Of a stretch of 64,000 nt of DNA, positions 967 to 59,385 are shown in pieces. Source of the stretch: an uncultured virus (IMG/VR IMGVR_UViG_3300044858_002734) (lineage: Duplodnaviria; Heunggongvirae; Uroviricota; Caudoviricetes); the IMG/VR virus record IMGVR_UViG_3300044858_002734, one strand, 5' to 3'. Position numbers and translations under genes: made by a program. Each line of letters opens with the position of its first letter. Positions within the stretch are counted from its first letter, which is position 1. The notes under the pieces are model-generated. The model searched no databases. It saw only the letters and a list, made by a program, of their open reading frames with translations, and was not told the origin of the DNA.

Positions 967-1410
967 TCATGGCGCAACCTCCTGTGCCATTGCATACGCC
1001 CCTGCCCAGTAAGCATGTCCTTCAGGGGTATCTGCCCATGTAAACCCACAGCTTATAGCGGAAGCTATATTATCAGTCATAACTGCCATGTTACGGGATA
1101 CAAGACTCCGCAGCAATCTACGGCGCAGATCACCCTGCTTAACGCCCTCAAACCATTCCCTGACTTGTTTCTCTTTAGCAGGGATAGCAGTTACAGAAAT
1201 AATGTCCAGTAAATCCACGCAGTTGTTTGTAAACAGCCCTGTATCAGTATAGTGAAACGTAAGGATGCTGCCACTTTCCATCTGTACCCGGATAACATGA
1301 GGGTAGCGATAATAATTCTTATCAACAATCCGCTCAACGTAAACTCCTCGTTTACCATCTCTGGTAGTAACTTGGTCACCCTCTTTACAGTTATTCAAGT
1401 TGATAATCAT
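967..1410 (-). CDS. Hypothetical two-module protein
   Basis: N-terminus MIINLNNC..TRDG is shared with 2115-2684; C-terminus F.W.DT.EGH.YW is shared with 51865-52612. Confidence 0.75.
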   Translation of the reverse strand: MIINLNNCKEGDQVTTRDGKRGVYVERIVDKNYYRYPHVIRVQMESGSILTFHYTDTGLFTNNCVDLLDIISVTAIPAKEKQVREWFEGVKQGDLRRRLLRSLVSRNMAVMTDNIASAISCGFTWADTPEGHAYWAGAYAMAQEVAP

Positions 1411-1716
1411 AACCTGCACTCCTTTCAGACTTCCACTCTCCACAGCGTTTTACCTGCTGTTCCCCAAGCTAGTACACAGGGCCACCCATGTACTGTTACA
1501 ACCTCAAGACTGTACCCAAACAGCCTTACACTAAACCCACCAATGTCAGCGCGTTTCATAGTTCCCCTATCTCCTTCCAGCGGCAGCTTCTGATCCCAAA
1601 TGACCTGCCACTAAGTAGGTAAATACCTCTACCAAGATACTCACATACAGTCCATGTATCCCAGTTACCCCAGACAACAGTATCAAATACCCTGCTAATT
1701 CGCTTTTGCTGGTTAC

Positions 1717-6171: not shown

Positions 6172-6930
6172 CTATGGGCTAGATACGCGGAAGAACCTTC
6201 CTGTAACAACCTCCGCATTAATAGGTGGGGTTGCATAGATAGAGTTCTTTACTGGTAGCCAATCATTAAAGTTATATGAATCCCATAAAGTATAAATCGC
6301 TCCTGTAATACTGGGCCAGAAAACTTCCACATGATGGTCAATCACTCTGATGCCAACAGAAAAAGGCAGGACAATTACAGGATTTGTTACAACGCCATCT
6401 GGAATGTCAAACATACCATAATTCAACATATTGGATGCCTGTGCATCTGTCACAATTAATAATTCAACATGAGGAACGCTGTTACTGTATGGTCTGCCCC
6501 ATGGTTTGAAATTCCCTGTCCCAAGACCAAGCTGATTGGGTAGGAATGTCGGCAAACGAGGAATAGCCATCCCGTAAACCAAAGGAACAGGTACACAGTT
6601 TGGATCGCCAAAATACCAAGCATCAAATGTGTTGACTGGACTTCTACCGTTACCAAACCAACACCAGTTGTTACCACCAACCTGCTTCCACTGCCTGTTA
6701 GCCACCAAAGGCCCACCTGTAATATACGATGTATCTGCAGGTAGATAGTAGCCCTCAACAGCCTTGCAAGCCTCAGCGGAGATAGTTATAACAGACCCAT
6801 CATACTTGCGCCATCTATCTTGCCATATAGCAACTGGAACATCCCACGGGCCAGAAACATATAAACACTCAACCCCTGAAGCAACGGAGGCAAAGCATAT
6901 ACTTAACATGATTACTTTAAATATAGGCAT
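6172..6930 (-). CDS. Exported protein with signal peptide and PVC-type C-terminal domain
   Basis: MPIFKVIMLSICFASVASG; C-terminus VFWPSITGAIYTLWDS.NF.DW...ATPPIN...RFFRV. Confidence 0.7.
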   Translation of the reverse strand: MPIFKVIMLSICFASVASGVECLYVSGPWDVPVAIWQDRWRKYDGSVITISAEACKAVEGYYLPADTSYITGGPLVANRQWKQVGGNNWCWFGNGRSPVNTFDAWYFGDPNCVPVPLVYGMAIPRLPTFLPNQLGLGTGNFKPWGRPYSNSVPHVELLIVTDAQASNMLNYGMFDIPDGVVTNPVIVLPFSVGIRVIDHHVEVFWPSITGAIYTLWDSYNFNDWLPVKNSIYATPPINAEVVTGRFFRVSSP

Positions 6931-7479
6931 AACTGCTTTCTGTGTTGGTTGCTGAACTGTAGGAATCAACTATTATTTATATAGTACATACCAAATGTAA
7001 GATTATACTTATAGTCTATATACATGATTCCTGAATAAAGAATGGCATAATTTTGGGCTGATATAAATAAGGGTACTATTATCTGACATCCTTCTTCATA
7101 TCCTATCTCCTTAGGTCTTATTCCTTGGGTCTTGTCCTGTTCTTTCCCATTGGTGGTCTGGATAGTGAGGCCTTAGGTAGCTCACAAAAGGAAAAAGACG
7201 GAAAAGAAAACCCATCAAAAGAAAAGCGAGAAAAAGGAAAAACGGCCCCACGCGTATAATTATAACAAAAGTTAGCATACTTGGCAAGTACATAAAGCGA
7301 TAATTGAAAATAGTTAAATCGTTGATACACAAGGGTTTATGATGTACTCAAAATTTCTCTTGACAAAAACTGCGTAACTTGGTGGTCTGTTGGGTAGGTA
7401 CTTGCCATATAACGGTAAGTGTGTTACTATACCTTCAATGCAAGCCCTGTAATGTGCGGGGTATAACTTAGGAGTCAGT

Positions 7480-12892: not shown

Positions 12893-14008
12893 ATGGCTTT
12901 TGCACCATTCATGGTTAATATTGATGAAGCGAACATTCCAGTCATTGGCGAGTTTAACGCTTTTGATGTGAATGCCAAACGCCCCTATCGTGGGGAGAAG
13001 CGTACTGACCTTGCTTACATTACCGAATCTGCTGGTAATGACGCTGAAGGTAAGCCTGCTTACAAGGCTCGTTGCGTTGGTGTTGCCAATGCTTCCACCT
13101 TACTTCGGGATGAGTGGAAGGTTATTGATGACGCTATTGGCGTAGCCCGTCAGAAACGGATGAACTTCGTAAACTGGCTGATCTCAAAGGGTTGCGTAAT
13201 TGACATTCCTAATGGTCTAGGCGTTACACAGTACGAATGGCAGAACATTGGTAGTCTCTCTGGCGCAGACATCAGCATGGACGGCTTAAAGCAGGGTGAT
13301 ACTGATCGTGTTGAATACACATCGGCCACCATGCCCCTGCCGATCATCAGCAAGAACTGGCGTCTAAACCTCCGCTATCTTGAGGAAAGTCGCCGTAAGG
13401 GTATGCCTATGGATACCTACTTCATGGCTGAGACTGCACGTATTGTAGCCCAGTATGTAGAGTCTATGGCAGTTACGGGTGTTGGCAGCTTTAAGTTTGG
13501 TGGCGATACAGTCTACGGGCTGCTTGACTCCCCGAACGTAGAAGCGGTTACTTCCGGTAGCGGCGTGTTCACAGTAGCATGGGATGATGCTACCGCCACA
13601 GGCACAGGTATTCTGGCTGACGTTCGCGCAATGGCACAGAAGCTGAATGACAATCTGCGCTACGGCCCGTTCGCTATGTGGCTACCGCAGAAGTATCAGC
13701 TTGCACTTGCTAAGGATTACTCCACCGAGTATCCCAAGACGATTGCACAGCGGATTCTTGAGACTGGTATCGTTTCTGAAATCCAGTACAGCGATTACTT
13801 CACACAGTCTGGTGGTAAGGATCGCGTGGTCATGATGGAAGCCTCTAAGGAAACTATTGCTATCGTTCGCGGTATGGAGTTCCGCGATTTCGAGTGGCAG
13901 AGCCTTGGCGGGTGGGTCATGGAACACAAGGTTGCCGGTATCTATGCTCCGCTAATTCGCGCCGATGCGGGTAGCAAGTATGGCATCGTCAAGGCTACCT
14001 TGGGTTAA
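12893..14008 (+). CDS. Major capsid protein (HK97 fold, linocin/encapsulin-like)
   Basis: LLRDEW..ID, PLPII.K.W, VYGL...PN, YGPF; size and position. Confidence 0.88.
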   Translation: MAFAPFMVNIDEANIPVIGEFNAFDVNAKRPYRGEKRTDLAYITESAGNDAEGKPAYKARCVGVANASTLLRDEWKVIDDAIGVARQKRMNFVNWLISKGCVIDIPNGLGVTQYEWQNIGSLSGADISMDGLKQGDTDRVEYTSATMPLPIISKNWRLNLRYLEESRRKGMPMDTYFMAETARIVAQYVESMAVTGVGSFKFGGDTVYGLLDSPNVEAVTSGSGVFTVAWDDATATGTGILADVRAMAQKLNDNLRYGPFAMWLPQKYQLALAKDYSTEYPKTIAQRILETGIVSEIQYSDYFTQSGGKDRVVMMEASKETIAIVRGMEFRDFEWQSLGGWVMEHKVAGIYAPLIRADAGSKYGIVKATLG

Positions 14009-14721: not shown

Positions 14722-15116
14722 CAGAAGGAACGCCCCTGATTAGTGACGCGGAACTAAAGAGTATATGTAACGAATTAGACAGTACGGCAGTTACCACTTT
14801 GTTTATAAGTTCAGCACACAGTATTGTATGGGAATACTTTGGCACTTCTACTGCGTATACTGCTGCGAGACTGAAACTAATTGAGTTATACTTAGCTGCT
14901 CACTTTGCTGCTATTACAAATCCAGTAAGTTCGTTTGAAGGTGTAGGTAAGGTACAGCAATCTGTACAATACAAGGTAGGATTAGGATTACAGTATACCA
15001 AGTATGGGCAACAGGCACAGATGTTAAGCGGCGGTACATTACTGGGTAAAAAGATAAGTATTACATGGCTTGGCACGCTTCCTGCTGATACGGAGACCGT
15101 CTATGCAACTAATTAA
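14718..15116 (+). CDS. Head-tail adaptor
   Basis: IELYLAAHF and TKYGQQA motifs. Confidence 0.75.
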   Translation: MTEGTPLISDAELKSICNELDSTAVTTLFISSAHSIVWEYFGTSTAYTAARLKLIELYLAAHFAAITNPVSSFEGVGKVQQSVQYKVGLGLQYTKYGQQAQMLSGGTLLGKKISITWLGTLPADTETVYATN

Positions 15117-15474
15117 GAAGTGCAGAATCCATGACGCAATACTGTGGCGCAGTAAGGGTGACAATGGCCGTGGTACTAGCGTATATGAATTACCTGTACA
15201 AATTAAATGCAGATGGGAAGGGCTTGAATCACAACAGTTTACCGCTGATAGCATAGAGCACAGGTGTAACTCACTTGTACTTGTTGACCGTGATATAAAA
15301 GTAGGCGATATACTAAAGTTAGGACTACTAACTGCAGAAGTTGGTGACACTACTGACCCTACTTCACTGGATGACGTGAGCTTTGTGCGGAAAGTGGAAA
15401 AGACTCCTACACTCCGCAATGCAGATATGACTAACTTTGACAAGGTAGCATGTTACGCTTATCTAGGGCAGTAA
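15103..15474 (+). CDS. Head closure/stopper protein
   Basis: A.LW....D..G...Y..P..I.CRWE; synteny. Confidence 0.65.
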   Translation: MQLIKKCRIHDAILWRSKGDNGRGTSVYELPVQIKCRWEGLESQQFTADSIEHRCNSLVLVDRDIKVGDILKLGLLTAEVGDTTDPTSLDDVSFVRKVEKTPTLRNADMTNFDKVACYAYLGQ

Positions 15475-16158
15475 ATGGCAAACTTACGGCATAGTATATT
15501 TAGAGGGGGTAGATACTCGCACGGTAGTTATGTTAAAGGACTACTGAATCCTGCTAATGGACTAGTTCAGATACATGTCAATTCAATGGGATGGGATAAA
15601 GTATATGCTAGGTTACGCAGTATACCCCCATCTGTACAGATTTCAATATCTGCTGCATCGCGGCGTAACGCAAAGAGTGTAGCAGAAACCGCAAGGGAAA
15701 ACGCACCAGAGGATACAGGCGCATTACGAGAAAGTATACAGGAAGTACCGACTGCAAACCCCTTAATGTGGACGGTAGAAGCAAACACACCGTATGCCTA
15801 TTTTGTAGAAGATGACATACATACGAGTTATACCATTAATGGGCCACCCCCACCCTCTGTATTTGGTGACAGTGAAGGGCAAGGGCCACCACAAGGGGCG
15901 CATTACATGGAAAGGGCCATTGCTGACACGGAAACGGCCAGTAGTGAAGCTATGGAAGCTGCGGTAGCTGTAGGCATAGGTAAGGCTATGACAATGGCAA
16001 CAAGGGGCAAGGGCGCGAACCTAGATTTTAAGACAGGAAGGGCTAAAGGTGCATTTAGTTTCTTGAAGTCTGCTAGTAGTGCGGGATTTGGTGTTCCATC
16101 AGTAAATAATGGTGGTGAAATCACACCTTTAGACATGGCAATAAGAGGTATAGAATGA
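15475..16158 (+). CDS. Neck protein (HK97 gp10-like)
   Basis: APEDTGALRESI, TPYA.FVE, YMERA. Confidence 0.8.
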   Translation: MANLRHSIFRGGRYSHGSYVKGLLNPANGLVQIHVNSMGWDKVYARLRSIPPSVQISISAASRRNAKSVAETARENAPEDTGALRESIQEVPTANPLMWTVEANTPYAYFVEDDIHTSYTINGPPPPSVFGDSEGQGPPQGAHYMERAIADTETASSEAMEAAVAVGIGKAMTMATRGKGANLDFKTGRAKGAFSFLKSASSAGFGVPSVNNGGEITPLDMAIRGIE

Positions 16159-17064: not shown

Positions 17065-17445
17065 ATGATTATTTCTGATGTATCAGCACTAAACAAGTAC
17101 CTGAGCAAGCCAAAGGCTGTAAAGCTGGATGAGGATACCACTGTCCTTGTCAAGCAGTTACGGAACGCGGAACTTGTTGCATTACAGGAAAAGTGCAAGT
17201 CGCTAGAAACTACGGAAAATGGGACGCAGAATACCCAACCGATTGCAGAGTTACTGGCTTCACTACTTGTAGATGAGAAGGGTGCGCTACTTTACACTAC
17301 ACCTGAACAGATTGCTGACCTTGCTAGTAATGTAACATTAGATTTCATTCGTGTATTCTTCCTGCGTGTATGGGAAGCGTATGGGTTCAGTGAGAAGGAG
17401 TTGGCTTCTGCGGAGGCGCAATTTCCACTCCAACCCAATCCTTAA
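17065..17445 (+). CDS. Tail assembly chaperone (G-like)
   Basis: LVDEKG motif; lies between tube and tape measure. Confidence 0.75.
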   Translation: MIISDVSALNKYLSKPKAVKLDEDTTVLVKQLRNAELVALQEKCKSLETTENGTQNTQPIAELLASLLVDEKGALLYTTPEQIADLASNVTLDFIRVFFLRVWEAYGFSEKELASAEAQFPLQPNP

Positions 17446-17761
17446 GTTTAAGTTCAGGTTAGCTATGGCATTGGGGCGTACAGTGGAAGAACTGGATGCC
17501 TCAATGACCACGGATGAGTTTTACCAATGGATAGCGTACTCCACGCTAGAACCTTGGGGTGAAGATCGTGCAGACTGGCGATCAGCACATACTAATGCTT
17601 TACTGAGTAGTTTGTTAGGGTCGGGCAAGAAGCAAATCAAAATCACTGACTACCTGTTAAAGTTTGAGAAACCTAAAGCTAAACCTGATGCAGGACTATC
17701 AGTTAATGAGCGGAATAAGTTAGCATTACAGCGTATGTTTCCTACGAATAAGAAAGGATAA
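17423..17761 (+). CDS. Tail assembly chaperone frameshift extension (T-like)
   Basis: FRLA.ALGRTV.EL..M...EF..W.AY...EPWGE.RAD; overlaps G in the +1 frame. Confidence 0.7.
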   Translation, partial: FHSNPILKFKFRLAMALGRTVEELDASMTTDEFYQWIAYSTLEPWGEDRADWRSAHTNALLSSLLGSGKKQIKITDYLLKFEKPKAKPDAGLSVNERNKLALQRMFPTNKKG

Positions 17762-21391: not shown

Positions 21392-22186
21392 ATGATACTA
21401 AAACGAACGCAGTATACCCAGTTACAAGCCGATATTAAAGCGGCTAGTATCCATCGTGTAGCTACTAGTACTGAATCGCGCAGTACTGCTGCTCCTTATG
21501 TCTATATTGCTAAGGTAACGCTATCTACTTCAAGTTCCGCAACGTCATACGACCAGATATATGTATACCAAGCTGATATTCTATGGACACAGTTCGGTAA
21601 AACGGATTTAGATGTATGGACTACCAATAGTACGATTAAGGCTGGACAAACGGATTTACTGCTATCTAACTATGATTTAGCTGTACATGGTTCAGATGTG
21701 GTATATGTACCTTGTGTGCAACGCGGTATCTACTTTGAGAACATAACAACCGCACCTGCATCATTACTTTGGAATCCGGTAATCACCCAGTATGTAGCAC
21801 CTGTAACTGCAGACCCAAATGCAATACCACCAGTTGTCGGTGTAACTGAAGTACAACCTAGTGTTACTTTTAAAAACTGTATATATCTTAGGTCACCTAT
21901 ATACAAACTGCTTACTGATCCTGTGTTTTCACTGACATCTATTACTGCATCAGGTACATATTACTGTGGTGTTAAAATCAGTGTTATAGACGGTTCTATA
22001 GACAGTACGTTACTGCTATCTGAAACATTAAGTGACGTAGTATATACTACCATAGAGGCTGCAAATGCAGACGCAGATTATATGCGGTTGTTGGTATGCA
22101 AACTCAAGTATGACGCAGACAAGGCGAAGTGGGCACTAGTACTGAAATATGTAAATTCTGTACCAGAAATGGGGATGTACGCATGA
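21392..22186 (+). CDS. Tail protein
   Basis: Synteny; beta-rich. Confidence 0.5.
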   Translation: MILKRTQYTQLQADIKAASIHRVATSTESRSTAAPYVYIAKVTLSTSSSATSYDQIYVYQADILWTQFGKTDLDVWTTNSTIKAGQTDLLLSNYDLAVHGSDVVYVPCVQRGIYFENITTAPASLLWNPVITQYVAPVTADPNAIPPVVGVTEVQPSVTFKNCIYLRSPIYKLLTDPVFSLTSITASGTYYCGVKISVIDGSIDSTLLLSETLSDVVYTTIEAANADADYMRLLVCKLKYDADKAKWALVLKYVNSVPEMGMYA

Positions 22187-24156
22187 CGATCAGGCAGTAC
22201 GCATTAGGTGTAGTTGTATCTGCAGGTGTGACAATCACAGGTGTCCTGTGGTATCAGAACCGTATGCCCTATATAGCTGGTGAGGATATTACTGCTTGTG
22301 TTGCTGCTGCTGTAGAGCGTAAATGGGTCACTGACTGGATTACACCTGCATATACTACAACAGTATTTAGGAAAGCATCAGATTTAGTGTTGGCCGCAGA
22401 CTTAATGCGTAAAGCTATTACCAATGCCAATGTGATATACCTAGACCCTAGAACATGGGATGAGGTAAGTGGTCTTGACATGGCTGTTAGTCATACATGG
22501 AGTGGGTCACCTTACAATACTAACACAGTAGGTACTGCCTTTTTAGAAGCCCCTGTATCTACCTTTATGAAGGGTATTGCTTTATCAGATATGGTTATTC
22601 CGTATACGTATGTGACTAATACTATTGTTACGACAAATCAACCATCAGTAACATATACAAACTTATATATTGTTTCACAGACTAATACTGTAACGCCAAA
22701 TTGGAATGACACTGGTCGCCCCACGGGGACGGTATTCAGATGGGGAAAAGACGAATACGGTGTTGAACAGTATACTGATGATGCTGTGGGTTGGACGCCT
22801 ATTGTTCTTGATCAATGGGATTGGGGATGGTGGAGTACCTTGTATGTGGATACACCCTCTTATTGGGGAACCGCAGATGGATCATTAGTTGGTACTTATC
22901 ATAGGCTAGATGCTGCTGACCCCGGTGAGGTAGTTATTGCTTACCACAATACGGTTACAAATACGCCACTCATTACTACCACTAACTATATTGTAACCAG
23001 ATACGGAGGCACAAACCTTTTACTATACGCACATGGGCAACCTAGTGACATGACACCTGATGTCCCAAGGATTAAACCATTACTGGGTAATACTAACAGT
23101 TGGTGGGAACATAACGGCTTTAGTACACCATATAACATGAATCAGGTAGAAACAAACAGCAGACCACTTTACTTCATAACTACCAATGGACTAAACCAAC
23201 TGCGTAAGTTAGCTACTAATATGGTTCGGACTGTTCAGTTTGACTTCCCTTGTTCAAACAGAGCGGTGACCGCGCAAATTATTGGTTCAGGTATGTGGGA
23301 TGCAATTTACATTGATTACAGTTCAACGTTCGACGATTTTGATGCGTTATGGGTTAATGCAGAGGCAGCAATCAATAGTGGGGTAGGTCTTTCCATCATC
23401 ACGAATACACTAACCACATTGAAAGGTACAACGACTGGGTATGCAGCAAACATGCACATTCGACGAACGGACGAGTTTGGGGTAACGTTTACAAATTACC
23501 AACATCTTGCTGGCCTATCGTTCTCCAATAGGCGGTTTGAGTTTACGGTGCCCTCAATTCCAATAGAGGCATACACAAATGGGTTTATCAGTCGCCAGAG
23601 AGTGTATGTTCAATATGAAGTGACTGGTGAAATGGGCCTTCCATCAAAAGATGCAATGCTCAGGATGGACGGTGGTTGGTGGAACATCCCGGTGACTTAC
23701 TCAAATTTGAAAACAAAAACAGACGAGAACGTAGAAGACCGGTTCGGGTGGGATTATACCTTTGGGGGTACATCTTCCTTTGACGTTCCAGCAAATGAAA
23801 ATGATCCTAACGCAACCTATAATGTGTACTCGCTTGCCACGAATCGGGTGTGGGTGTTGGTTGCTGATGTGGTGTCCCCTACAACTCCGCCCTCATTTAC
23901 TCTCGGGCCCAGCAACTTAGTTTCTGCATCCTATACCTACCCACAACCCAAATATGGGCTTTCCAGTATTGGAGGTTTTTTTACCTACGACGATCACGGT
24001 GTTAGGTTCAAGGGATACGCGGCATCAATCGCACATTCCGCATTAGTAATAGACTGGGATTTTAAAATCTTTGGTGATACAGATTACGTACCAGAAGCAT
24101 ATAAACCAGCATGGACTACAAATAATATCCCCCCTTGGGTAACAAACAGCCCTTGA
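22183..24156 (+). CDS. Tail-module protein with N-terminal signal/anchor, Thr-Asn rich
   Basis: ATGA overlap start; MTIRQYALGVVVSAGVTITGVLWY; 19 TN dipeptides counted. Confidence 0.7.
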   Translation: MTIRQYALGVVVSAGVTITGVLWYQNRMPYIAGEDITACVAAAVERKWVTDWITPAYTTTVFRKASDLVLAADLMRKAITNANVIYLDPRTWDEVSGLDMAVSHTWSGSPYNTNTVGTAFLEAPVSTFMKGIALSDMVIPYTYVTNTIVTTNQPSVTYTNLYIVSQTNTVTPNWNDTGRPTGTVFRWGKDEYGVEQYTDDAVGWTPIVLDQWDWGWWSTLYVDTPSYWGTADGSLVGTYHRLDAADPGEVVIAYHNTVTNTPLITTTNYIVTRYGGTNLLLYAHGQPSDMTPDVPRIKPLLGNTNSWWEHNGFSTPYNMNQVETNSRPLYFITTNGLNQLRKLATNMVRTVQFDFPCSNRAVTAQIIGSGMWDAIYIDYSSTFDDFDALWVNAEAAINSGVGLSIITNTLTTLKGTTTGYAANMHIRRTDEFGVTFTNYQHLAGLSFSNRRFEFTVPSIPIEAYTNGFISRQRVYVQYEVTGEMGLPSKDAMLRMDGGWWNIPVTYSNLKTKTDENVEDRFGWDYTFGGTSSFDVPANENDPNATYNVYSLATNRVWVLVADVVSPTTPPSFTLGPSNLVSASYTYPQPKYGLSSIGGFFTYDDHGVRFKGYAASIAHSALVIDWDFKIFGDTDYVPEAYKPAWTTNNIPPWVTNSP

Positions 24157-24181
24157 CTATTCCCTACCAATAGTATACTAT
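24153..24181 (+). promoter_or_regulatory. sigma70-type promoter
   Basis: TTGACT-17-TACTAT. Confidence 0.6.
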
Positions 24182-24199
24182 ATTTAACAAGGAGCAATT

Positions 24200-24793
24200 A
24201 TGGATGGGCGACTAATTCTTTCCTACTATGACATTGACAGGAACAGGTGGTGTGAATCTGACGGTTCACCCATCCTTGAACGGCATTTCCCGTATTTCAA
24301 CTTGTATGAAACCCCTGTACTAGTCATAAACCTTATTAATAGTGATGCAGACCCAGTAACCATATTGCCTAATTCCACATTCCAGTTTGTTGTAACTGAT
24401 ATGGATTATGACCCTATTGTAGTGCCTATGGCTGGCGGGGTCAATAATGAAGCAGATTATGATGAGGTAGACCCTGATAACGGCATATTCAGCTTTAGAC
24501 TAAATTTTGCAACAGAAGAAGCAGAGGATTTACTGGATGGATATCGCAGACTACCTGTAGTCAGTAACCTGAACATTGTAGCCCCTACTACCAGTTATAA
24601 CATTAATTTAACAGGCGATTCCATACTACATAAAGTCTACAAGGATACTGCAACTGTTATTCCAATCGGCGTTCCGTCACAGTACAGGATTAATCCTAAT
24701 GACGGTGGCACAGATATTTGGGACTACGGCAACTCAACTTGGATGCGCGGCATACTTGAAAACGGTATCCTGTCTTACTATCCTGCACCATAA
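24200..24793 (+). CDS. Baseplate/fibre-anchoring protein (BppU-like)
   Basis: Acidic beta protein directly before the large fibre; AAGGAG RBS. Confidence 0.45.
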   Translation: MDGRLILSYYDIDRNRWCESDGSPILERHFPYFNLYETPVLVINLINSDADPVTILPNSTFQFVVTDMDYDPIVVPMAGGVNNEADYDEVDPDNGIFSFRLNFATEEAEDLLDGYRRLPVVSNLNIVAPTTSYNINLTGDSILHKVYKDTATVIPIGVPSQYRINPNDGGTDIWDYGNSTWMRGILENGILSYYPAP

Positions 24794-24803
24794 AGGAACC
24801 CTT

Positions 24804-27800
24804 ATGCGATACTTATTACTTTCCCTACTGATGGCAGGCCCACTATACGCTGTACCACCTAAGCCTACTAATAGTGTGGTTTCAGAGGCAGTGTCTGTAC
24901 TGTATAATACTAACAGAGTAGCAAGTCTAGGCCCGTCTAATGCGGTCACCCTTATAAATGCTATGATAACTAATAAGACTACAGTTATCAGCAATCAGGT
25001 AACTGTACTTGAAGGCAAAACGAATAACTGGAATACTGCTTATAGTTGGGGCAATCACTTTGGACTATACAGGTTAATTGACTGGGTTCCCAGTTGGAAT
25101 GACGTTACAAATAAACCCACTACTTTTACTCCTGCCCCTCATGATTATACCTCTATCACTAATCCCCCTTGGCTGACAGGACAGACCAACCCCGTCTACG
25201 TCGCCCAGTCCGGCACGGCGCAAGTGGCACGCACCGCAGAGCACTACAGCGGGAGTTCCATCGTCATCACCAACATGATCGACTCTGGCGCAGGCCGCTA
25301 TGACGTGCTATCCATGACGGCCACCACAATCGAGATCAGCAACTACGACGCAGGCGTGGTGACAGAAAAAAGCCGCTCGACCAAAAACCTGCTAAAGTTT
25401 CAAGACGCCGCTGGTGATGGAATCGAATATGGCTCTTACGGCTTGAAATTCATTGATTGGGACGTTGGGGAAATCACTCTTGGTTTTCCATCCGAATCCG
25501 GCACGATTGAGACACAGGAGCGAGTGGCTAGTCTGCTCGATGGCAAGGTCTCTACCAACGACGCCGCCTACCTCGCCGCCTGGCAGAACCCGGCTTCCAG
25601 CACTAACTGGGCATGGTCAAGCGACGGCACGCAGATCACGCTGACAAGCTACAGCGGCCCGGCTGACGTTGTGGTTCCAGACACGCTGGACAATCTCCCG
25701 GTGAATATCCTGTCGTATACGGTTTTTCAAAACGATAACACGATCACAAGTATAGACTGCGGAAACATTACCACTGTTGGAGAGGCTGCTTTTCAGAACT
25801 GTACTTCACTAACAAACGTTTTATTTCGCAAAGCAGTAACGTTTATTGGAACAGGAGGTGCTACGTTTGACGCGTGCAGAGCCTTGCTGTGTGTCAAATT
25901 TCAAAGTGAAGTAACCTTAGTACGGTCCATGTTTTTTAACTGTAGCGCGCTGAAAGAAGTAATGTTTGGCGGTGGGGTTGCGCCAGAAGAAAAAGAGAAC
26001 TTTTATTACGTTGAAGACGACGACATCGCTCCGGTCACGAACTATGTCACCAGCAGCACCGCCACCGGATGGGGCGCGACGTGGTGCGGAAGGCCCGTCG
26101 TGCGGTTGCCATTGTACACAGACGCGCTTACGCTTGGCGGCACGAACCTGACGACGCTGCTCGCGGGCAAGCTGAACACCAACGGAACAGCGGCTAATTC
26201 GACTCTACTGGCTGGCTACACCATCGAAGATGTCATGGCAGTCGGTGCGACTTACTATTTCACAACCAATATCGTATCATACGGCGTTGTTAGCGGAAGA
26301 TCGGCATCACTGACTCCACCGCTTGTTGCACAGACGTTGACCTACGCAGGCCCTGTTACAAACGGCCAAGTATTCGGTCAATACCTAATCCCATCAAATG
26401 AAGTTCCCGCTATCATTCAGCGTGGCGTGTATACGTTCAACTTCTTCGGCGGTCACTCGTCTAAACCTGCCAAAAATCCGACTATCCGAGGCAAGCTGTC
26501 AATGATAAACTCTGGAACAGGAGTCACTGCATACGAATATGCTTCGGTAGCGAATGTGGTTATCCCTTATGGTGAAGAGCCGTTCCACATAACTGTCAAT
26601 GTGACGAATGACGTTGCTAAAGACTCGTTCGCCGTTTTACTGACCACATACATGCTGGATGATGACGGATACGACGGAGATTTCATATCCGACTTTGGAC
26701 CCCCAACATATGCAGGATTTACCTTCCCTAAAGTGAATGGATTGTATGTTCTAAAATCAGAGTTTGACGCTACATCGAGAGGAGCTACAAATTCGACGAT
26801 AAATGGCACGGCAGCGATTTTTAACCCTGCCACTCGTACGTTTTCTCATACGGTTACTGCGGCTGACGTTGGCGCGGTCACGAACGGCCAAACGAACGTC
26901 GTGCTTGGCCTCGCGTCAGGCACTACCGTCGCAACGGCAACGGCGGGAAGCGAGCCTGCCACACTCGATCAAGTGCTGTCCCTTTTGGAACCCTCAAGCA
27001 CGCTGTATCTGTCTCCGTCAAACTGCACGGTGTGCCCGCAGAACACAACGACAAACCGTACACTATCCGCAACACCATCCGCGACAGCTTGGACAATCGT
27101 CTATTCAGGCGCGGTGACGAACGGGCAATACCTTTTCTCTTTTGTCGCACCGTCAAACGAAGTGGCAACCGTTCTAGCCGGAAACCAGACGGCCAGCATA
27201 TACATGACTTATGCAGGTGGAGGCGGGTCTACGCTGTCTTGTAAAATGGAGGGCTACGTTTACGACCCGGCGACCAGCAACAGCACGGAATACGCAGAGA
27301 CAGCGACATCGTTCAGTGTTGCGAAATCTGGAACGCTTCCGACAACCCCGACGACCCCGATTGCTGTCATCCCATATTCGACAAACCTGACCGGCAATCT
27401 GCGCTATCAAATCAGGATCAAAGCGACGACGGCAAACAACGTCACATCCGTTACGATGTGGGGCGGCGGAAGCTCTATCAGCCATGTGGCATTCCCGGTT
27501 TCGGATTCGGTTACGCTTGGGGCGCGAGGGGCAACCGGGATCAAAGACTCGCTCGGAAACGCCGGAACGTATGACTCGACAGCCCGAACACTGACCATGC
27601 CAGCATTGACCCCGGCAGGCATCGCGGCGGCGGGGGGCGTGACGAACGTCATTATCTCCACGCCGATCTCCACACTGACCACCGGCGAGGTCGTTATGGT
27701 CACGCCGTCGCAATCCAAGCGCGTCTACCAGGTTAAGGCCAGCGTACCGATCACGCTGACCAATGACCTGTCTCAACTCGGCGCGAACTGCACAACGAAC

Positions 27801-28430
27801 TACGAATGGGAAACGTGGATCAATTACACCGCCACCAACGCCCTCTCGACCGTTTGGGATAGCCGCATCGCGTGGCAGCAGCAGACGCCCGATTTGACGG
27901 TTACTGGACTCTACAAGTTTGCGTTCTCGACGGCGTGCGGCACCATCATTCAGGCGCGGCAGACGTATCCGACTGTGTATTCGTGGCGCGGCGGGATGAT
28001 TGGCAATGATTCGGGTGTGAAAAAGCCGTATATTTATGGTCTTGTATCCACTGCCACACCTGCGTCCACATCGACCAATTATTACGCGATGGAAACGTCA
28101 CCCGCTGTCCCAGAAATTACAAGATTTAGTTGTTATGGCGGGGTCGCAACGAACAACATTGTAATTAGCTCGGCAATAGGGTTTTTTTACGCCGTACCAA
28201 CCGCGTCATCCACTGTGATACGGGCACCAACTACCGTGGTTGGTGCGATTGGTTCGCCGATCACGCTACAGATATATCATCCGGCGTCAACAGGCGCAAA
28301 CAATGTTGATTATATTGGCGTTACGATGCAATCGGCGTCAACGGCCGCTGCCTTGAATCTCTACAATCTCCGGAGGCGTCCCGCCAACGAGCTCGAAATC
28401 AACGCCTACAACGCAGGATGGAGACCGTAA
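24804..28430 (+). CDS. Large mosaic tail fibre/adhesin with signal peptide and BspA-type LRR module
   Basis: AAAGGA RBS; MRYLLLSLLMAGPLYA; PSWNDVTNKPTTF.PAPH fibre motif; ITTVGEAAFQNCTSLTNV LRRs; internal duplication. Confidence 0.8.
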   Translation: MRYLLLSLLMAGPLYAVPPKPTNSVVSEAVSVLYNTNRVASLGPSNAVTLINAMITNKTTVISNQVTVLEGKTNNWNTAYSWGNHFGLYRLIDWVPSWNDVTNKPTTFTPAPHDYTSITNPPWLTGQTNPVYVAQSGTAQVARTAEHYSGSSIVITNMIDSGAGRYDVLSMTATTIEISNYDAGVVTEKSRSTKNLLKFQDAAGDGIEYGSYGLKFIDWDVGEITLGFPSESGTIETQERVASLLDGKVSTNDAAYLAAWQNPASSTNWAWSSDGTQITLTSYSGPADVVVPDTLDNLPVNILSYTVFQNDNTITSIDCGNITTVGEAAFQNCTSLTNVLFRKAVTFIGTGGATFDACRALLCVKFQSEVTLVRSMFFNCSALKEVMFGGGVAPEEKENFYYVEDDDIAPVTNYVTSSTATGWGATWCGRPVVRLPLYTDALTLGGTNLTTLLAGKLNTNGTAANSTLLAGYTIEDVMAVGATYYFTTNIVSYGVVSGRSASLTPPLVAQTLTYAGPVTNGQVFGQYLIPSNEVPAIIQRGVYTFNFFGGHSSKPAKNPTIRGKLSMINSGTGVTAYEYASVANVVIPYGEEPFHITVNVTNDVAKDSFAVLLTTYMLDDDGYDGDFISDFGPPTYAGFTFPKVNGLYVLKSEFDATSRGATNSTINGTAAIFNPATRTFSHTVTAADVGAVTNGQTNVVLGLASGTTVATATAGSEPATLDQVLSLLEPSSTLYLSPSNCTVCPQNTTTNRTLSATPSATAWTIVYSGAVTNGQYLFSFVAPSNEVATVLAGNQTASIYMTYAGGGGSTLSCKMEGYVYDPATSNSTEYAETATSFSVAKSGTLPTTPTTPIAVIPYSTNLTGNLRYQIRIKATTANNVTSVTMWGGGSSISHVAFPVSDSVTLGARGATGIKDSLGNAGTYDSTARTLTMPALTPAGIAAAGGVTNVIISTPISTLTTGEVVMVTPSQSKRVYQVKASVPITLTNDLSQLGANCTTNYEWETWINYTATNALSTVWDSRIAWQQQTPDLTVTGLYKFAFSTACGTIIQARQTYPTVYSWRGGMIGNDSGVKKPYIYGLVSTATPASTSTNYYAMETSPAVPEITRFSCYGGVATNNIVISSAIGFFYAVPTASSTVIRAPTTVVGAIGSPITLQIYHPASTGANNVDYIGVTMQSASTAAALNLYNLRRRPANELEINAYNAGWRP

Positions 28431-28431
28431 A

Positions 28432-28890
28432 ATGTACTATCAGATCACAAACGGGCAGGCAGTCCCCGCCACAATCGCAAACGCCAGCAACCCGCAACTG
28501 TTCATCGCCGCGCAATCGCAGGCATGGCGTCACGAGCGCGGCATCTACGCGCAACTCATCGAGGGCGACGTTGCAGAGCCGACAGCCGCGCCAGAGCAGG
28601 ACGCGATTATAGTTCCGCGTGCCGTGCCAGCCGCGCCCGTAATGGAGCCTGTTGACGCACGGCTGACGGAACTGCAGGGCGAATACAAAACCGCCACCGC
28701 TGCCCTGTGCGGCGTGTTAGGACTCGCTACTGTGCCGGTGTTATCGCTTGACCAGATACGGCAGGGAGCGGCACAGTTGCCGAGCGGTGAGGCCATGATT
28801 CAGGTGCTTGCGATTGTGACGGAGTTGTCGAATCTTGAAATGAAACTGTGCCTGATTGACGGTGCTGACGCGCTGGAAAGGATCGTGTGA
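28432..28890 (+). CDS. Probable fibre-associated/chaperone protein
   Basis: Abuts the fibre gene; same high-GC composition. Confidence 0.5.
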   Translation: MYYQITNGQAVPATIANASNPQLFIAAQSQAWRHERGIYAQLIEGDVAEPTAAPEQDAIIVPRAVPAAPVMEPVDARLTELQGEYKTATAALCGVLGLATVPVLSLDQIRQGAAQLPSGEAMIQVLAIVTELSNLEMKLCLIDGADALERIV

Positions 28891-28891
28891 T

Positions 28892-29275
28892 ATGTCACCG
28901 AGGAAAATGCCCTCTCGCGATTTACGCCTGCTTACCATGACAACCATGATATGCAGTATAATGTTTGCAGTATCACTTGCCTGTGCGGGTGTAACTGATG
29001 AGGCATTATCAGCATCACAGCAGATTGAAAAGATGTCTATTGTAGGTGTACTGGCATTTGGCCTTATGGCATCTATGGGACTGAACATATATCTAGTAAA
29101 GGTACGGGATGGCAAGTTTACTACCTTAGTAGAGACGGCAGTACTTGCTATGCAGACATGCCATGAAAGCCGGGATAAATGGGAGCGTGAACGGGAGCAG
29201 GAACGCCTATGGCAACAGGAACGGGATATCAAGCTAGGTGTGCATGAGATAAGGCATGAGGATAGAAGGGCATGA
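28892..29275 (+). CDS. Membrane protein (holin-like)
   Basis: Two hydrophobic segments and a charged C-terminus. Confidence 0.45.
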   Translation: MSPRKMPSRDLRLLTMTTMICSIMFAVSLACAGVTDEALSASQQIEKMSIVGVLAFGLMASMGLNIYLVKVRDGKFTTLVETAVLAMQTCHESRDKWEREREQERLWQQERDIKLGVHEIRHEDRRA

Positions 29276-29325
29276 ATATGACTGGTGCCATTGGCAAGGG
29301 TTCGTATCAAAGAAAGGGAACAGGA

Positions 29326-29589
29326 ATGAAAACATTAATTATACTTAGTATGATGACACTTACAGGATGTATTGGTACTTCCGTATCAGCTAATGGGAAA
29401 GATGCAAGGGGAAACCCTTGGGAAGCTAAGGTAAGTCGTATAGCGATAGGGCAGAAAAATGATATACCTAAACTAGAAGTACCCGGTATGTTTACTATGC
29501 AAGGGTATAGTACTGATGGTGGGGCTGAAATGATGAAGCTAATGATTTCAGCAGCTATGGAACTAGGTAAGAAATCGGTTACTCCATGA
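29326..29589 (+). CDS. Lipoprotein (possible spanin component)
   Basis: MKTLIILSMMTLTGC lipobox. Confidence 0.6.
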   Translation: MKTLIILSMMTLTGCIGTSVSANGKDARGNPWEAKVSRIAIGQKNDIPKLEVPGMFTMQGYSTDGGAEMMKLMISAAMELGKKSVTP

Positions 29590-30122
29590 AATACGGTGTT
29601 GACTTTTTCGTACTAGACCCAATCACAGGCGAGAAACTGCCCCTTGTGCTATCTGCTAAGGGCAAGCGACCTGTTATCTTACAGCCTGAAACACATGCTT
29701 TTGCCTACCCTGATAATGGTAGTAGAGGGTTTTGGCTTAAGCGTGATTTTACCATTGTATGCTGCTTCCGTGGCAAGTGGTACAAGATGACTGTCAAAAA
29801 GGGGTTTGACTTTGACGGAGCCAGTATCCCGCAATGGGCATGGTCTGTTGTAGGTGATCCACTATCACTTACCATCTTAATAGCAGCCCTATTCCATGAC
29901 ATCCTGTTTTGTGTAAATGACCCTGAATGGCCGTTATCAGTCACCAACGAGTTATTCCTTGAGATACAACAGGCTATAGGAGCATGTTGGGTAAAGCGCA
30001 ATACAACTACTAAAGCGGTACAGGCTGCAGGTTGGGCAATGTGGAAGAAGGATGAGGCATACAAGGCAAAGTATCGCCCGTTTTTGGATATAGTATTAAT
30101 AGGCGCACCAGTTGGTGTATAA
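29586..30122 (+). CDS. DUF1353-like protein
   Basis: GFDFDGASIP...AALFHD motif. Confidence 0.75.
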   Translation: MKYGVDFFVLDPITGEKLPLVLSAKGKRPVILQPETHAFAYPDNGSRGFWLKRDFTIVCCFRGKWYKMTVKKGFDFDGASIPQWAWSVVGDPLSLTILIAALFHDILFCVNDPEWPLSVTNELFLEIQQAIGACWVKRNTTTKAVQAAGWAMWKKDEAYKAKYRPFLDIVLIGAPVGV

Positions 30123-30220
30123 ATTCTGTCTTTACAGAGGCAGATAAATAGTGTACAGTATGTATATCAACTAGAAGATAGTTGTTTGTTATTGGGTAAA
30201 CTCGGAAAGGGCATAAATCT

Positions 30221-30622
30221 ATGAAGAAACTTTTACTTGTCGCTGGTATGGTTCTTGTTGGTATGGTTGCACAGGCCGCAAACCTTGTTACAGGGCCAGA
30301 TGTTTATAAGACGGTGCAATGCGCTGGCGTTAGCACAATCACTGTTGACCGTGCGCAGGAAGTATGGATTCCTGTAGGTGTTGCTATTGACGTAGGTAAC
30401 GGTACAGAAACCAGCACCAATACACTTTCATTCCTTCCTACAGGCGGGACTACCCTCTTCCGTCTACAGAGCATTGTAATGGTTGGTGGGGCTGAAACTA
30501 ATACATCCCTTAGCGATTATCCTGCCTTAGTATACGGTGACAAGCTGATTCTTGCTCCTGACCGCACTACCACTACTAACACATTCAGCGTCACAATGAT
30601 CAAGCAAGTGATCCCACGGTAA
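30221..30622 (+). CDS. Exported beta-rich protein
   Basis: MKKLLLVAGMVLVGMVAQA signal peptide with A-x-A site. Confidence 0.75.
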   Translation: MKKLLLVAGMVLVGMVAQAANLVTGPDVYKTVQCAGVSTITVDRAQEVWIPVGVAIDVGNGTETSTNTLSFLPTGGTTLFRLQSIVMVGGAETNTSLSDYPALVYGDKLILAPDRTTTTNTFSVTMIKQVIPR

Positions 30623-31095: not shown

Positions 31096-31134
31096 AAAAC
31101 GCCCCTTACAGTGTTTATCCTGTAAGGGGCTTTT
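31096..31134. terminator. Bidirectional terminator between convergent arms
   Basis: GCCCCTTACAG/CTGTAAGGGGC stem flanked by AAAA and TTTT. Confidence 0.85.
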
Positions 31135-32571: not shown

Positions 32572-32970
32572 TTAGTGTGTGAGGAAAATGCAAGAGGCTT
32601 TGAAGGCTGCGTTTGTGCAATTTCCGACTGCATAAAGGGTATCTCCTGCTGCAAAGGGGATGGTAGGGTTAAATACGGTAGTGGTTTCTTCTTTGTTAGC
32701 TGTCACTACTGTGGCAAGGGTGTTAGTTACCCGACTATCAGCACTAATCCTGTAGTACACATTAGTAGATGCCTGTACCGTATTGGTAACGCAATCATAC
32801 TGCGTCATATAGGCCAGTAGTCCCTGATTCTGTGGGCCTAAAGTAGCAGTAGCATAGTTATTAACACCATTGGCATTAGCGGATGATGTTAGCTTAACCC
32901 GAAACACGTCAGCATGTGCTAGGGTAGCAGCGGAAACGGCAAAGATGAAAGCAAGTAGTAATTTCTTCAT
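32572..32970 (-). CDS. Exported beta-rich protein, distant paralog of 30221-30622
   Basis: MKKLLLAFIFAVSAATLAHA signal peptide; GAAAGGA RBS. Confidence 0.75.
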   Translation of the reverse strand: MKKLLLAFIFAVSAATLAHADVFRVKLTSSANANGVNNYATATLGPQNQGLLAYMTQYDCVTNTVQASTNVYYRISADSRVTNTLATVVTANKEETTTVFNPTIPFAAGDTLYAVGNCTNAAFKASCIFLTH

Positions 32971-40402: not shown

Positions 40403-40415
40403 AGAACACCTAGAT

Positions 40416-40486
40416 TAGCGGGGGAAGGAATCGAACCTTCACTGACTGGTTATGAGCCAGTCATGCTGCCATTACAATACCCCGCA
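40416..40486 (-). tRNA. tRNA-Met(CAT), possibly initiator
   Basis: Cloverleaf by hand: anticodon arm ACTGG-CTCATAA-CCAGT, T arm GAAGG-TTCGATT-CCTTC, 1:72 T:T mismatch, no encoded CCA. Confidence 0.88.
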
Positions 40487-40491
40487 ATAGT

Positions 40492-51840: not shown

Positions 51841-51866
51841 GATAACGATTTTCGCCTTGCGACCTT
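51841..51866 (-). promoter_or_regulatory. Phage-specific motif copy 2
   Basis: GATAACGATTTTCG-CCTTGC-GACCTT. Confidence 0.7.
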
Positions 51867-52242
51867 ACCGTTTATTTTGTTTGATTAAAGTTTTATCTAC
51901 AAGTGCTTCTGCCAATCCTTCAACTGACTTATCTTGTATTGCCTCATAGATAGCTGTCTCTAGTCCCTTGATTCTGCGTTTAAGTAGGTATGATGGAATA
52001 GATAATCCATCAATGTTAAATCTACGCCATACAGTATCAAAAGTATCGCCTTCTACAAAGAGCTTGAATAGGGCAGACCAATAGTTATGCCCTTCCTTTG
52101 TATCCTGCCATACAAATGCGGAGTGTAATGCGCTACTATCCGTGTGACCTTTAGAAGTAGCCCAGTAAGGTGCTTGGTACTTAAACAACTTGCGCCGAAG
52201 TCTACGACTCTTAATGCCCTTGAAACATTCTAATATAGTCAT
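51865..52242 (-). CDS. Hypothetical protein (F.W..T.EG..YW family)
   Basis: Paralog of 52244-52612 and of the C-terminus of 967-1410. Confidence 0.7.
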   Translation of the reverse strand: MTILECFKGIKSRRLRRKLFKYQAPYWATSKGHTDSSALHSAFVWQDTKEGHNYWSALFKLFVEGDTFDTVWRRFNIDGLSIPSYLLKRRIKGLETAIYEAIQDKSVEGLAEALVDKTLIKQNKR

Positions 52243-52243
52243 G

Positions 52244-52612
52244 TTACTTTCCCTTTAGTGCCCTTTTCAAATGGACTAACGTGCAATTATCACCGTCTGC
52301 TAGATGCCTGTTTTCACGAATTGTCTTACGAATAGCAGATTCTAGTTGCTTAATACGAGCGTCCTTATCATCTGTCATGAATAAGGAATATGCCTCATCG
52401 AAGGTTTCTACCTTACAGAGCTCTGTGTAGAGTTCCAACCAGTAATTATATCCCTTTTTGGAATGTATCCAACTAAACGCACTATATAAGGCTTTCGCAT
52501 CTGTGTCCGCATACTCGCAACCGCCTACAAATCCCTCATCATAAGCGTCCAACAGGTTTTTACGCAATGTCTTGTTCTTAACTGCCTTGAACCGTTCTTT
52601 GATAGTAGTCAT
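52244..52612 (-). CDS. Hypothetical protein (F.W..T.EG..YW family)
   Basis: Tandem paralog of 51865-52242. Confidence 0.7.
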   Translation of the reverse strand: MTTIKERFKAVKNKTLRKNLLDAYDEGFVGGCEYADTDAKALYSAFSWIHSKKGYNYWLELYTELCKVETFDEAYSLFMTDDKDARIKQLESAIRKTIRENRHLADGDNCTLVHLKRALKGK

Positions 52613-58957: not shown

Positions 58958-59310
58958 GGCGCAACCTCCGGCGTATTAAAGACGGCAACAATATCATCAC
59001 AGTCAGTCAACGTGCCATCCCTTACTGCTTCATGTACTGCTATGATATGCTTCTCAAGTACTGCAATTCGTTCACGCAGCACAGTCAGTTCAGTTTGTTG
59101 TGCCTCGGTTTCCTTTTTCAGGAACTTGTTAAGTGCCCTGCCTACATAACGGGCAGCAATTACGGCTTGATGCTTACTGTACTGCCCAAAGATGCGGAAT
59201 ACAGAATCGGCTATCTCTAACCGTAATTCATAAAAGTTATTAAACGGGACAATCTTGCAGTACTCATTGGACAATCTGTTTGATTTACTTTGAATTTTGA
59301 TTTTCGTCAT
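58954..59310 (-). CDS. Hypothetical protein
   Basis: ORF downstream of motif copy 3. Confidence 0.6.
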   Translation of the reverse strand: MTKIKIQSKSNRLSNEYCKIVPFNNFYELRLEIADSVFRIFGQYSKHQAVIAARYVGRALNKFLKKETEAQQTELTVLRERIAVLEKHIIAVHEAVRDGTLTDCDDIVAVFNTPEVAP

Positions 59311-59337
59311 AATTCACCCTTTCGTGTTGCGACAACG

Positions 59338-59363
59338 GATAACGATTTTCGGCGCGTCACCTT
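59338..59363 (-). promoter_or_regulatory. Phage-specific motif copy 3
   Basis: GATAACGATTTTCG-GCGCGT-CACCTT. Confidence 0.7.
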
Positions 59364-59385
59364 GCAATGCTTTCGTTTTGCGCTA

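Follow-up and report, generated by a model that had tools for sequence, protein, structure and literature searches.

The window analysed here, the first 64 kb of the 79,807-bp IMG/VR virus record IMGVR_UViG_3300044858_002734 (rated complete by CheckV), carries a siphovirus-type late operon on its plus strand between 7.6 and 31.1 kb. Genes for the small and large terminase (TerS, TerL), portal, decoration protein, major capsid protein (MCP), tail completion protein and major tail protein precede those for a G/T-type chaperone pair and an 816-amino acid (aa) tape-measure protein. 3' of the tape measure lie the genes at 20218, 21392, 22183 and 24200 and, at 24804, the gene for a 1208-aa fibre-like protein, from now on referred to as the fibre. 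The fibre gene is followed by a 152-aa gene, a holin-like gene, a lipoprotein gene, a DUF1353 gene and the genes at 30221 and 30744. This analysis concerns the fibre, the tail protein p22183 and two small proteins, p30221 and p32970, which are predicted to share an N-terminal secretion leader with the fibre. All four are rich in the dipeptide Thr-Asn (TN). The features needed first are:

24804–28430, plus strand: mosaic fibre-like protein, 1208 aa, 12 cysteines
24804–24851, plus strand: predicted general secretory (Sec, type I) signal peptide of the fibre, residues 1–16, cleavage predicted after LYA
24852–25178, plus strand: conserved mature N-terminal domain of the fibre, residues 17–125, with the G+C content of the phage backbone; candidate docking domain
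30221–30622, plus strand: p30221, 133 aa, 1 cysteine, predicted 19-residue Sec-type leader (30221–30277) followed by a seven-strand β-sandwich
32572–32970, minus strand: p32970, 132 aa, 3 cysteines, predicted classic leader ending AHA, among minus-strand replication-module genes
12893–14008, plus strand: MCP, one of the leaderless comparators

Predicted leaders and the anchor-like N-terminus of p22183

The fibre open reading frame (ORF) starts MRYLLLSLLMAGPLYA from the ATG at 24804, which is preceded by an AAGGA Shine-Dalgarno-like site 8 nt upstream and lies 11 nt past the stop of the previous gene. Its N-terminus is laid out as MR/YLLLSLLMAGP/LYA. Leaders were called with a rule of our own for the n-h-c layout, together with reading by eye and conservation; the Sec type I criteria are a basic n-region, an h-region of about 8–15 hydrophobic residues and small residues at positions -3 and -1. 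The fibre, p30221 and p32970 all have this layout and pass the rule, in agreement with an earlier sequence-only reading that had assigned a Sec leader to the fibre and classic leaders to the two small proteins. The fibre would be cleaved after residue 16. When the fibre is compared with its homologue in L003, only 5 of 17 leader residues are identical, against 87 of 112 in the stretch covering mature residues 17–125 (78% identity), beyond which the two proteins (1208 aa vs 805 aa) diverge. Such a fast-diverging leader in front of a well-kept mature N-terminus is, as far as sequence can tell, the signature of a true signal peptide. Leader-like N-termini are present in all 5'-complete fibre homologues on 16 viral loci, and 22 of the 29 closest database matches pass the leader rule. 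The seven that fail comprise two 5'-partial sequences, one with a start called too far downstream, two with longer hydrophobic N-termini and two truly leaderless relatives, P0010 and P0015.

The p30221 ORF starts MKKLLLVAGMVLVGMVAQA, has a Shine-Dalgarno-like site upstream and encodes a leader of the form MKK/...AQA. Nine homologues of 28–47% identity were found; a leader can be read by eye in 10 of 10 alignment members, and the rule is passed by eight of the nine scored homologues as well as by p30221 itself. Leaders within the family share only 3–9 of 18–19 residues and keep the layout throughout, so that the persistence of leaders in homologues, on which the sequence-only reading depended, is borne out for both this family and the fibre. 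An AlphaFold2 model of p30221 shows the leader, at low confidence, as a helix detached from the confidently modelled seven-strand β-sandwich that follows it. This mature fold matched 69 viral models at E <= 0.001, the best being phage proteins of 103–117 aa, one of them named 'virion structural protein'. In a PDB search with the model no match reached E <= 0.001, the weak ones being jelly-roll or TNF-like, and the p30221 profile had no PDB sequence match. The minus-strand p32970 ORF starts MKKLLLAFIFAVSAATLAHA, likewise with a Shine-Dalgarno-like site upstream, and its leader is of the form MKK/...AHA. A paralogous relationship between p30221 and p32970 was considered and rejected, the match being limited to the first six leader residues. 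Two more leader-like ORFs lie outside the late operon, at G000 70666–71094 and window 6172–6969, and neither is TN-rich (0 TN vs 0.1 expected and 1 vs 0.8, respectively).

The fourth protein, p22183, has a hydrophobic N-terminus of a different kind. It and its upstream neighbour are:

21392–22186, plus strand: tail protein, 264 aa, upstream of p22183
22183–24156, plus strand: p22183, tail-tip or central-fibre-like protein, 657 aa, 2 cysteines, core tail gene
22198–22254, plus strand: hydrophobic N-terminal segment of p22183, residues 6–24, sequence-conserved, 19-residue Kyte-Doolittle mean 1.57 (borderline transmembrane)

The p22183 ORF starts MTIRQYALGVVVSAGVTITGVLWY, its ATG overlapping the stop of 21392–22186, and the gene follows the tape-measure gene and two or three small tail proteins. 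Y6, A7, V10, S13, G20, W23 and Y24 are invariant in 12 of 12 homologues. The N-terminus is kept even on the 208-kb phage contig L004, where identity is 27% over the residues matched by tblastn, and on a Lentisphaeraceae contig. The public gene call (P0065, 630 aa) begins at Met28 and thus omits this conserved segment (window 22183–22263). Over the first 40 codons, however, comparison with L003 gives 15 synonymous and 2 non-synonymous differences, which shows that the 27 codons upstream of Met28 are translated. The N-terminus has no AxA-type site and does not evolve fast, as a cleavable leader would. Because its sequence is conserved in all 12 homologues, it resembles an anchor (of the tail tip or of the membrane) rather than a cleaved leader. 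The sequence-only reading had described a hydrophobic signal or anchor here; the hydrophobic, anchor-like character stands, the typical cleavable leader does not. Overall, p22183 is most likely a core tail-tip or central-fibre protein. Pfam, PHROG and PDB sequence-profile searches gave no match for it, and its AlphaFold2 model, built from 12 sequences, has a mean predicted local distance difference test score of 56.4 with the N-terminus unmodelled and nothing at E <= 0.001 in a Foldseek search against the PDB. A PDB sequence search with p20218 gave chance-level matches only. Judged by eye, the ORF 3' of the p22183 homologue on L004 (12716–19119) resembles an S8-type peptidase, and one farther downstream a UDP-galactopyranose mutase.

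The conserved p22183 N-terminus bears on an explanation in which nothing is exported. The hydrophobic N-termini would then be assembly or docking elements within the tail tip, or would delay assembly, and TN would simply be a structural habit (a strand-end or turn motif, for example) of a pool of fibre modules that these phages share and that is specific to their lineage. For p22183 this is a good fit, as its N-terminus is co-conserved with the C-terminal ~90 residues of the 21392 protein in distant phages (L003, L004 and L021), the 208-kb phage included. The leaders of the fibre and p30221 behave differently: they have the full n-h-c layout with AxA-type sites and diverge in sequence yet keep that layout, unlike docking peptides. 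Export of the fibre, p30221 and p32970 is the best-supported step of our interpretation and is probable on the sequence evidence.

Thr-Asn excess in leader-bearing families

The fibre contains 29 TN dipeptides, p22183 19, p30221 3 and p32970 4, where composition predicts 10.7, 5.5, 0.7 and 1.7, respectively. Among leaderless comparators the MCP and the 20218 protein contain none and the 21392 protein one (0.8 expected). All of these counts, together with the coordinates and N-termini, had been given exactly in the sequence-only reading. The reverse dipeptide, Asn-Thr (NT), occurs 5, 8, 3 and 2 times in the four TN-rich proteins, at or below expectation in the two large ones. TN is the most over-represented dipeptide in both the fibre (z 5.8) and p22183 (z 5.6), and in 20,000 shuffles of either protein the observed count was never reached. 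Their excess thus goes beyond Thr and Asn composition, the simple explanation that the sequence-only reading had allowed for. The corresponding shuffle fractions are 0.02 for p30221 and 0.07 for p32970, neither significant alone. An effect at the level of codons or DNA was rejected: all synonymous codon pairs occur, therefore selection acts on the protein. An effect of N-X-S/T sequons was rejected as well, since sequons are not enriched (2 vs 7.8 expected, and 20 vs 16.8).

The comparison was extended to 13 non-redundant viral loci gathered by homology to the fibre, to 400 kb of a Lentisphaeraceae metagenome-assembled genome (MAG) and to cellular and model-phage proteins:

Leader-like ORFs of the 13 viral loci (n = 32): TN 394 vs 130.3 expected, ratio 3.02
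Other ORFs of the same 13 loci (n = 200): TN 135 vs 134.8, ratio 1.00
Leader-like ORFs of the Lentisphaeraceae MAG, 400 kb (n = 45): ratio 0.93
Other ORFs of the Lentisphaeraceae MAG, 400 kb (n = 245): ratio 0.99
The MAG's own cellular leucine-rich repeat (LRR) protein (n = 1): TN 1 vs 2.3
Distant cellular LRR matches (n = 15): ratio 0.95
Lambda J and Stf and T4 gp34–37, pooled: TN 27 vs 26.8, ratio 1.01
Canonical leaderless tail fibre in L015 (n = 1): TN 2 vs 2.2

The link between TN and leaders drawn by the sequence-only reading thus holds across these viral loci. Its accompanying suggestion, that TN enrichment marks secreted proteins of Planctomycetes-Verrucomicrobia-Chlamydiae (PVC) bacteria, does not agree with the MAG values, and TN as a general trait of the PVC secretome was rejected on this 400-kb sample and the one LRR protein. 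TN as a general trait of tail fibres was rejected on the lambda and T4 proteins. Of 14 further leader-bearing ORFs, unrelated by BLAST, nine have an excess (pooled TN 56 vs 12.5 expected) and five, lipoproteins among them, do not. At least eight leader-bearing families unrelated by BLAST have a TN excess. TN reaches at least twice expectation in 10 of 10 members of the p22183 family and in eight of nine of the p30221 family, compared with none of 14 in the leaderless p24200 family, where the rule finds no leader in any of the 14 members and TN totals 8 vs 15.2 expected. Within these phages the threefold excess is restricted to families with a leader or a hydrophobic N-terminus.

The excess is specific to the pair, with observed/expected ratios of 1.11 for Ser-Asn (SN), 0.77 for Thr-Asp (TD) and 0.63 for NT, and the flanks of TN sites are strand-like, with V at -1, an aromatic or aliphatic residue at +2 and V or T at +3. 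Homologues of ~41% identity within the p22183 family share 54% of the window TN sites, compared with 0–40% for other dipeptides. The family uses 57 distinct TN columns in all, with 15–24 sites in each protein, so that both fixed positions and a maintained number are seen. TN is a short motif under protein-level selection in these proteins, with about half of its sites fixed in position and the rest turning over. The cysteines of the four TN-rich proteins show no paired pattern.

The view that nothing is exported and that TN is a structural habit of a fibre-module pool fits the position-fixed sites and their β-strand-like flanks, and the TN-rich leaderless proteins P0010 and P0015 as well. It is harder to see on this view why the excess recurs in leader-bearing families that BLAST does not relate, and why it is missing from leaderless structural proteins of the same phages, including the canonical tail fibre in L015, and from the fibres of lambda and T4. 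Taking these points together with the leaders, we consider it improbable that nothing is exported.

Alternatively, TN may be a recognition site for periplasmic modification, for example glycosylation of Thr or Asn, by host or phage enzymes, so that the exported proteins would be densely decorated; modification at TN had been raised in the sequence-only reading. The specificity for Thr followed by Asn, the confinement of the excess to leader-bearing or hydrophobic-N-terminus families and the constant site number with turnover of positions, as predicted by selection on density, agree with such a role. A planctomycete, itself a PVC bacterium, heavily O-glycosylates its surface layer at a probable GT/SX motif, as given in PMC5088730. 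On the other hand, no glycosyltransferase was found among 90 phage ORFs and no STT3/PglB (PF02516) in the one candidate host genome, G001, an incomplete MAG. The sequon counts show no enrichment, the host-type secretome lacks the TN signal, and a literature search found no published TN or PVC glycosylation motif. Modification is the bolder alternative to a folding motif, and we regard it as very unlikely. Our best guess is that TN serves the folding or stability of β-rich proteins maturing outside the cytoplasm.

The fibre gene in its module and a proposed route to the virion

Behind its N-terminal domain the fibre is a mosaic, in which the following parts can be distinguished:

25713–26006, plus strand: BspA-type leucine-rich repeat region (Pfam LRR_5, PF13306), residues 304–401, E 1.1e-10, 41.9 bits vs cut-off 27.7
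26187–26879, plus strand: fibre module, residues 462–692, 63% identity to the leaderless 1633-aa protein P0010
25200–28900, plus strand: G+C-rich cassette (0.50–0.62; backbone ~0.43) covering the fibre body from about residue 130 and the gene 28432–28890

G+C content is 0.43 over the leader and N-domain, steps up near residue 130 and comes back down at the holin-like gene. The fibre-plus-partner cassette was likely gained by module exchange from a donor of higher G+C content. The LRR region accounts for the only PDB sequence matches of the fibre (4fs7, 4gt6 and 6mlx), and the only profile matches are LRR_5 and phrog_18805, a family of unknown function. A suspected tail-fibre repeat could not be confirmed because permissive Pfam and PHROG scans of fibre pieces gave nothing, and Peptidase_S74 had no match in the Pfam scan. 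Atlas scores for the fibre reach 0.83 at most and are a lead only. INPHARED phages gave neither a DNA nor a protein match to the region or the fibre.

By gene context the fibre resembles a tail fibre. Its gene belongs to the tail module and follows the tape-measure and tip genes within the late operon, in one transcription unit between tail-tip genes and lysis-type genes, and it joins a conserved N-terminal part to an exchangeable distal part. L003 and the Lentisphaeraceae contig L021 likewise have p22183 followed by a leader-bearing fibre. Members of the fibre family also occur in structural modules of other phage types, and the one in L016 matches tail-fibre PHROGs (phrog_8147, E 1.4e-11). 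The end of the operon is marked by one feature:

31101–31130, no strand assigned: strong bidirectional terminator-like hairpin with an 11-bp stem, closing the plus-strand late operon

It is the sole strong terminator-like hairpin and sits where the plus- and minus-strand blocks meet. The terminator scan, a consensus method giving weak evidence, found no strong terminator between the tape-measure gene and 31073. The minus strand encodes a full replication set (PolA, clamp, clamp loader, primase, helicases, ligase, RecA-like, SbcCD-like and methylases), and no integrase was found among the 90 phage ORFs scanned; the phage is therefore probably virulent. As for a moron or lysogenic-conversion gene, no strong terminator flanks the fibre gene in this weak scan and an integrase is absent from the 90 ORFs. 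The lack of an integrase among these ORFs and the full replication set argue against a lysogenic-conversion gene.

The genes flanking the fibre are both leaderless:

24200–24793, plus strand: p24200, leaderless, 197 aa, TN 0, located between the two large TN-rich genes; may be an adaptor or chaperone
28432–28890, plus strand: p28432, leaderless, 152 aa, directly 3' of the fibre

The nearest Atlas clusters of p24200 are viral and without a Pfam family. A complex prediction of p24200 with p22183 residues 540–657 and fibre residues 17–130 scored 0.00, which is evidence neither way. A p28432 relative also lies 3' of the fibre homologue in L012 (L012:9660–10109; pairwise BLASTP E 1e-6), and kinship of p28432 to the neighbour in L005 was rejected, there being no similarity. 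In L003 the place directly 3' of the fibre, filled in the window by the leaderless p28432, is taken by an additional glycine-rich protein of 338 aa (14912–15928) whose N-terminus is leader-like.

We hypothesize that the 1208-aa mosaic LRR fibre and the two small leader-bearing β-proteins would cross the inner membrane via Sec and fold in the periplasm, and that the fibre would dock on the tail tip only once lysis mixes the two compartments. As a whole, with an exported fibre and two exported small β-proteins and with the fibre joining the tail tip at lysis, this is the best explanation we can offer, and we put it forward tentatively.

Its main rival keeps export and drops the virion: the fibre-like and small leader proteins would have a late periplasmic or surface role such as receptor masking, or would be released as adhesin or decoy. 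Masking would block superinfection or the sticking of new virions to debris. This account gains from leaders that are real by every sequence test, from a surface-protein LRR as the only recognised domain of a fibre without a tail-fibre profile match, from the position of p32970 among early, replication-module genes and from the possibility that p22183 is the sole receptor-binding protein. A cellular precedent exists in the mosaic adhesive trimer (MAT) fibres of Bdellovibrio; according to PMC10769870, all 21 carry a signal peptide and are surface-displayed. It is less easily reconciled with a conserved backbone-type N-domain on a swapped body, the layout of a part that docks on its own phage, or with a slot fixed behind the tail-tip gene in sipho-type modules and the occurrence in structural modules of other phage types. 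The missing promoter-terminator frame of its own (weak evidence) and the seemingly virulent phage also speak against it. A non-virion role is accordingly unlikely in our view, and docking at lysis is favoured because the fibre has both the layout and the slot of a part fitting its own phage.

Several points weigh against docking at lysis and should be noted. Export, cleavage and virion presence are predictions, and the leader calls come from our own rule and reading. No tailed phage is known to add exported parts to its virion, and a full-text literature search found no account of a tailed phage with Sec-leader fibres. Profile searches with the window fibre found no known tail-fibre family, either by PHROG or in permissive Pfam and PHROG scans of its pieces, and its sole domain match is of a type typical of bacterial surface proteins. 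If either of the leaderless flanking proteins, p24200 or p28432, were a fibre chaperone, cytoplasmic folding would fit better. The TN richness of the leaderless fibre relatives P0010 and P0015 means that TN is not strictly tied to the leader, and the 13 viral loci behind the ratio of 3.02 are not independent samples because they were gathered by homology to the fibre.

Finally, a Lentisphaerae (PVC) host, deduced from one MAG contig, is plausible but thin. The fibre family was found in one GTDB species genome only, the Lentisphaeraceae MAG (G001), where the match lies on a 23-kb contig (L021) bearing the same tail module; of 301 genomes searched in that class, one contained the p22183 family. 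The MAG has a G+C content of 56% and the phage of ~44%. A paper on Lentisphaerae chronic phages (PMC11361711) does not mention signal peptides or tail fibres. In its most far-reaching form, the proposal would be a two-compartment build in phages of Lentisphaerae-type hosts. Head and tail would be made in the cytoplasm, and Sec-exported, periplasm-matured recognition proteins, bearing a dense TN motif as the target of periplasmic modification or quality control, would snap onto the tail tip at lysis with the membrane-anchor-like p22183 N-terminus as a bridge. Taken in full, this scenario is improbable.

Neighbouring genes, known systems and implications

Between p28432 and p30221 lie three small genes:

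28892–29275, plus strand: holin-like protein, two hydrophobic segments, C-terminus charged, by sequence reading; conserved in L003, no family match
29326–29589, plus strand: small lipoprotein with lipobox LTGC, possibly a spanin-like or exclusion lipoprotein; the L003 counterpart has the lipobox TSGC
29586–30122, plus strand: DUF1353 protein (PF07087, E 1.1e-10; phrog_1158 'tail assembly chaperone', E 6.9e-16)

The holin-like two-segment membrane protein and the lipobox lipoprotein adjoin each other (28892–29589), and no endolysin family was recognised anywhere in the 79.8-kb genome. Upstream in the late operon, the overlapping tail chaperone ORFs at 17065–17761 (phrog_344; Phage_tail_T / phrog_337) are laid out as in a G/T-type programmed frameshift. 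At the left genome end, ORF 86–643 consists of short PGI(T/P)V-type repeats (Pfam GLTT repeat, E 6.3e-10). A small paralogue family with a shared N-terminal N-C-x-x-G-D motif is encoded at window 967–1443 and 2115–2684 and at G000 71689–72174, 74074–74298 and 75594–76103, and a second paralogue set with a common ERF-x-AVKNK-type start at 51865–52612 and 66216–67130. The minus-strand early block contains a plus-strand GIY-YIG / NUMOD3 homing-endonuclease-like gene (59290–60327), and tRNA-Met(CAT) and tRNA-Ile(TAT) genes are located at 40415–40487 and 62993–63070, respectively.

Textbook tailed-phage assembly is wholly cytoplasmic. Canonical fibres such as lambda Stf/J and T4 gp34–37 resemble the window fibre in gene slot, with the tape-measure and tip genes on one side and the lysis genes on the other, and in combining a conserved N-terminal part with an exchangeable body. 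The window fibre likewise shares modules with phage fibre-like proteins and has a small gene 3' of it. It differs from them in its predicted Sec-type leader, its threefold TN excess and the lack of a known-fibre profile match.

BspA-type LRR surface proteins (PF13306; 4fs7, 4gt6 and TpLRR 6mlx) share with the fibre an LRR_5 match above cut-off and a secretion leader. They differ in that the LRR makes up only ~8% of the window fibre, the rest being a phage-type mosaic, and cellular LRR proteins have a TN observed/expected ratio of 0.95. Exported proteins of tailed phages include spanins, Sec or signal-arrest-release (SAR) endolysins, lambda Lom and Bor, and T5 Llp. These likewise use the host Sec system, and the window has the usual lipoprotein and holin-like gene near the fibre. 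None of these is known to be a fibre or virion part. Filamentous phages have Sec-dependent coat proteins and assemble at the membrane, and they have no tail.

The nearest published system is that of the MAT fibres of Bdellovibrio bacteriovorus, described in PMC10769870 as exported, phage-fibre-like mosaics in which a signal peptide is immediately followed by a conserved domain and the tips vary. A weak resemblance exists between the p30221 model and the Bd2133 fibre tip (8ond, E 1.4e-3, template-modelling score 0.44; below the tool's threshold). MAT genes are chromosomal genes of the predator whose products stand on its cell surface, whereas the window genes belong to a phage late operon. The MAT superfamily is characterized by a conserved ~130-aa β-rich domain directly after the signal peptide and, in part of the family, by an S74 chaperone-protease, which was not found in the window; the two systems were compared by description.

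A fibre that crosses the inner membrane first would mean either that recognition parts are added to the virion at or after lysis, or that fibre-like proteins are secreted for another purpose, for example receptor masking. Either outcome would alter the way in which one reads fibre genes in metagenomes, engineers host range and expresses receptor-binding proteins. The TN excess is a countable mark that splits leader-bearing from leaderless proteins in these phages (3.0 vs 1.0). Because it is missing from the host-type secretome and from model-phage fibres, it provides a testable handle on the selective force behind it and a possible means of finding more such proteins.

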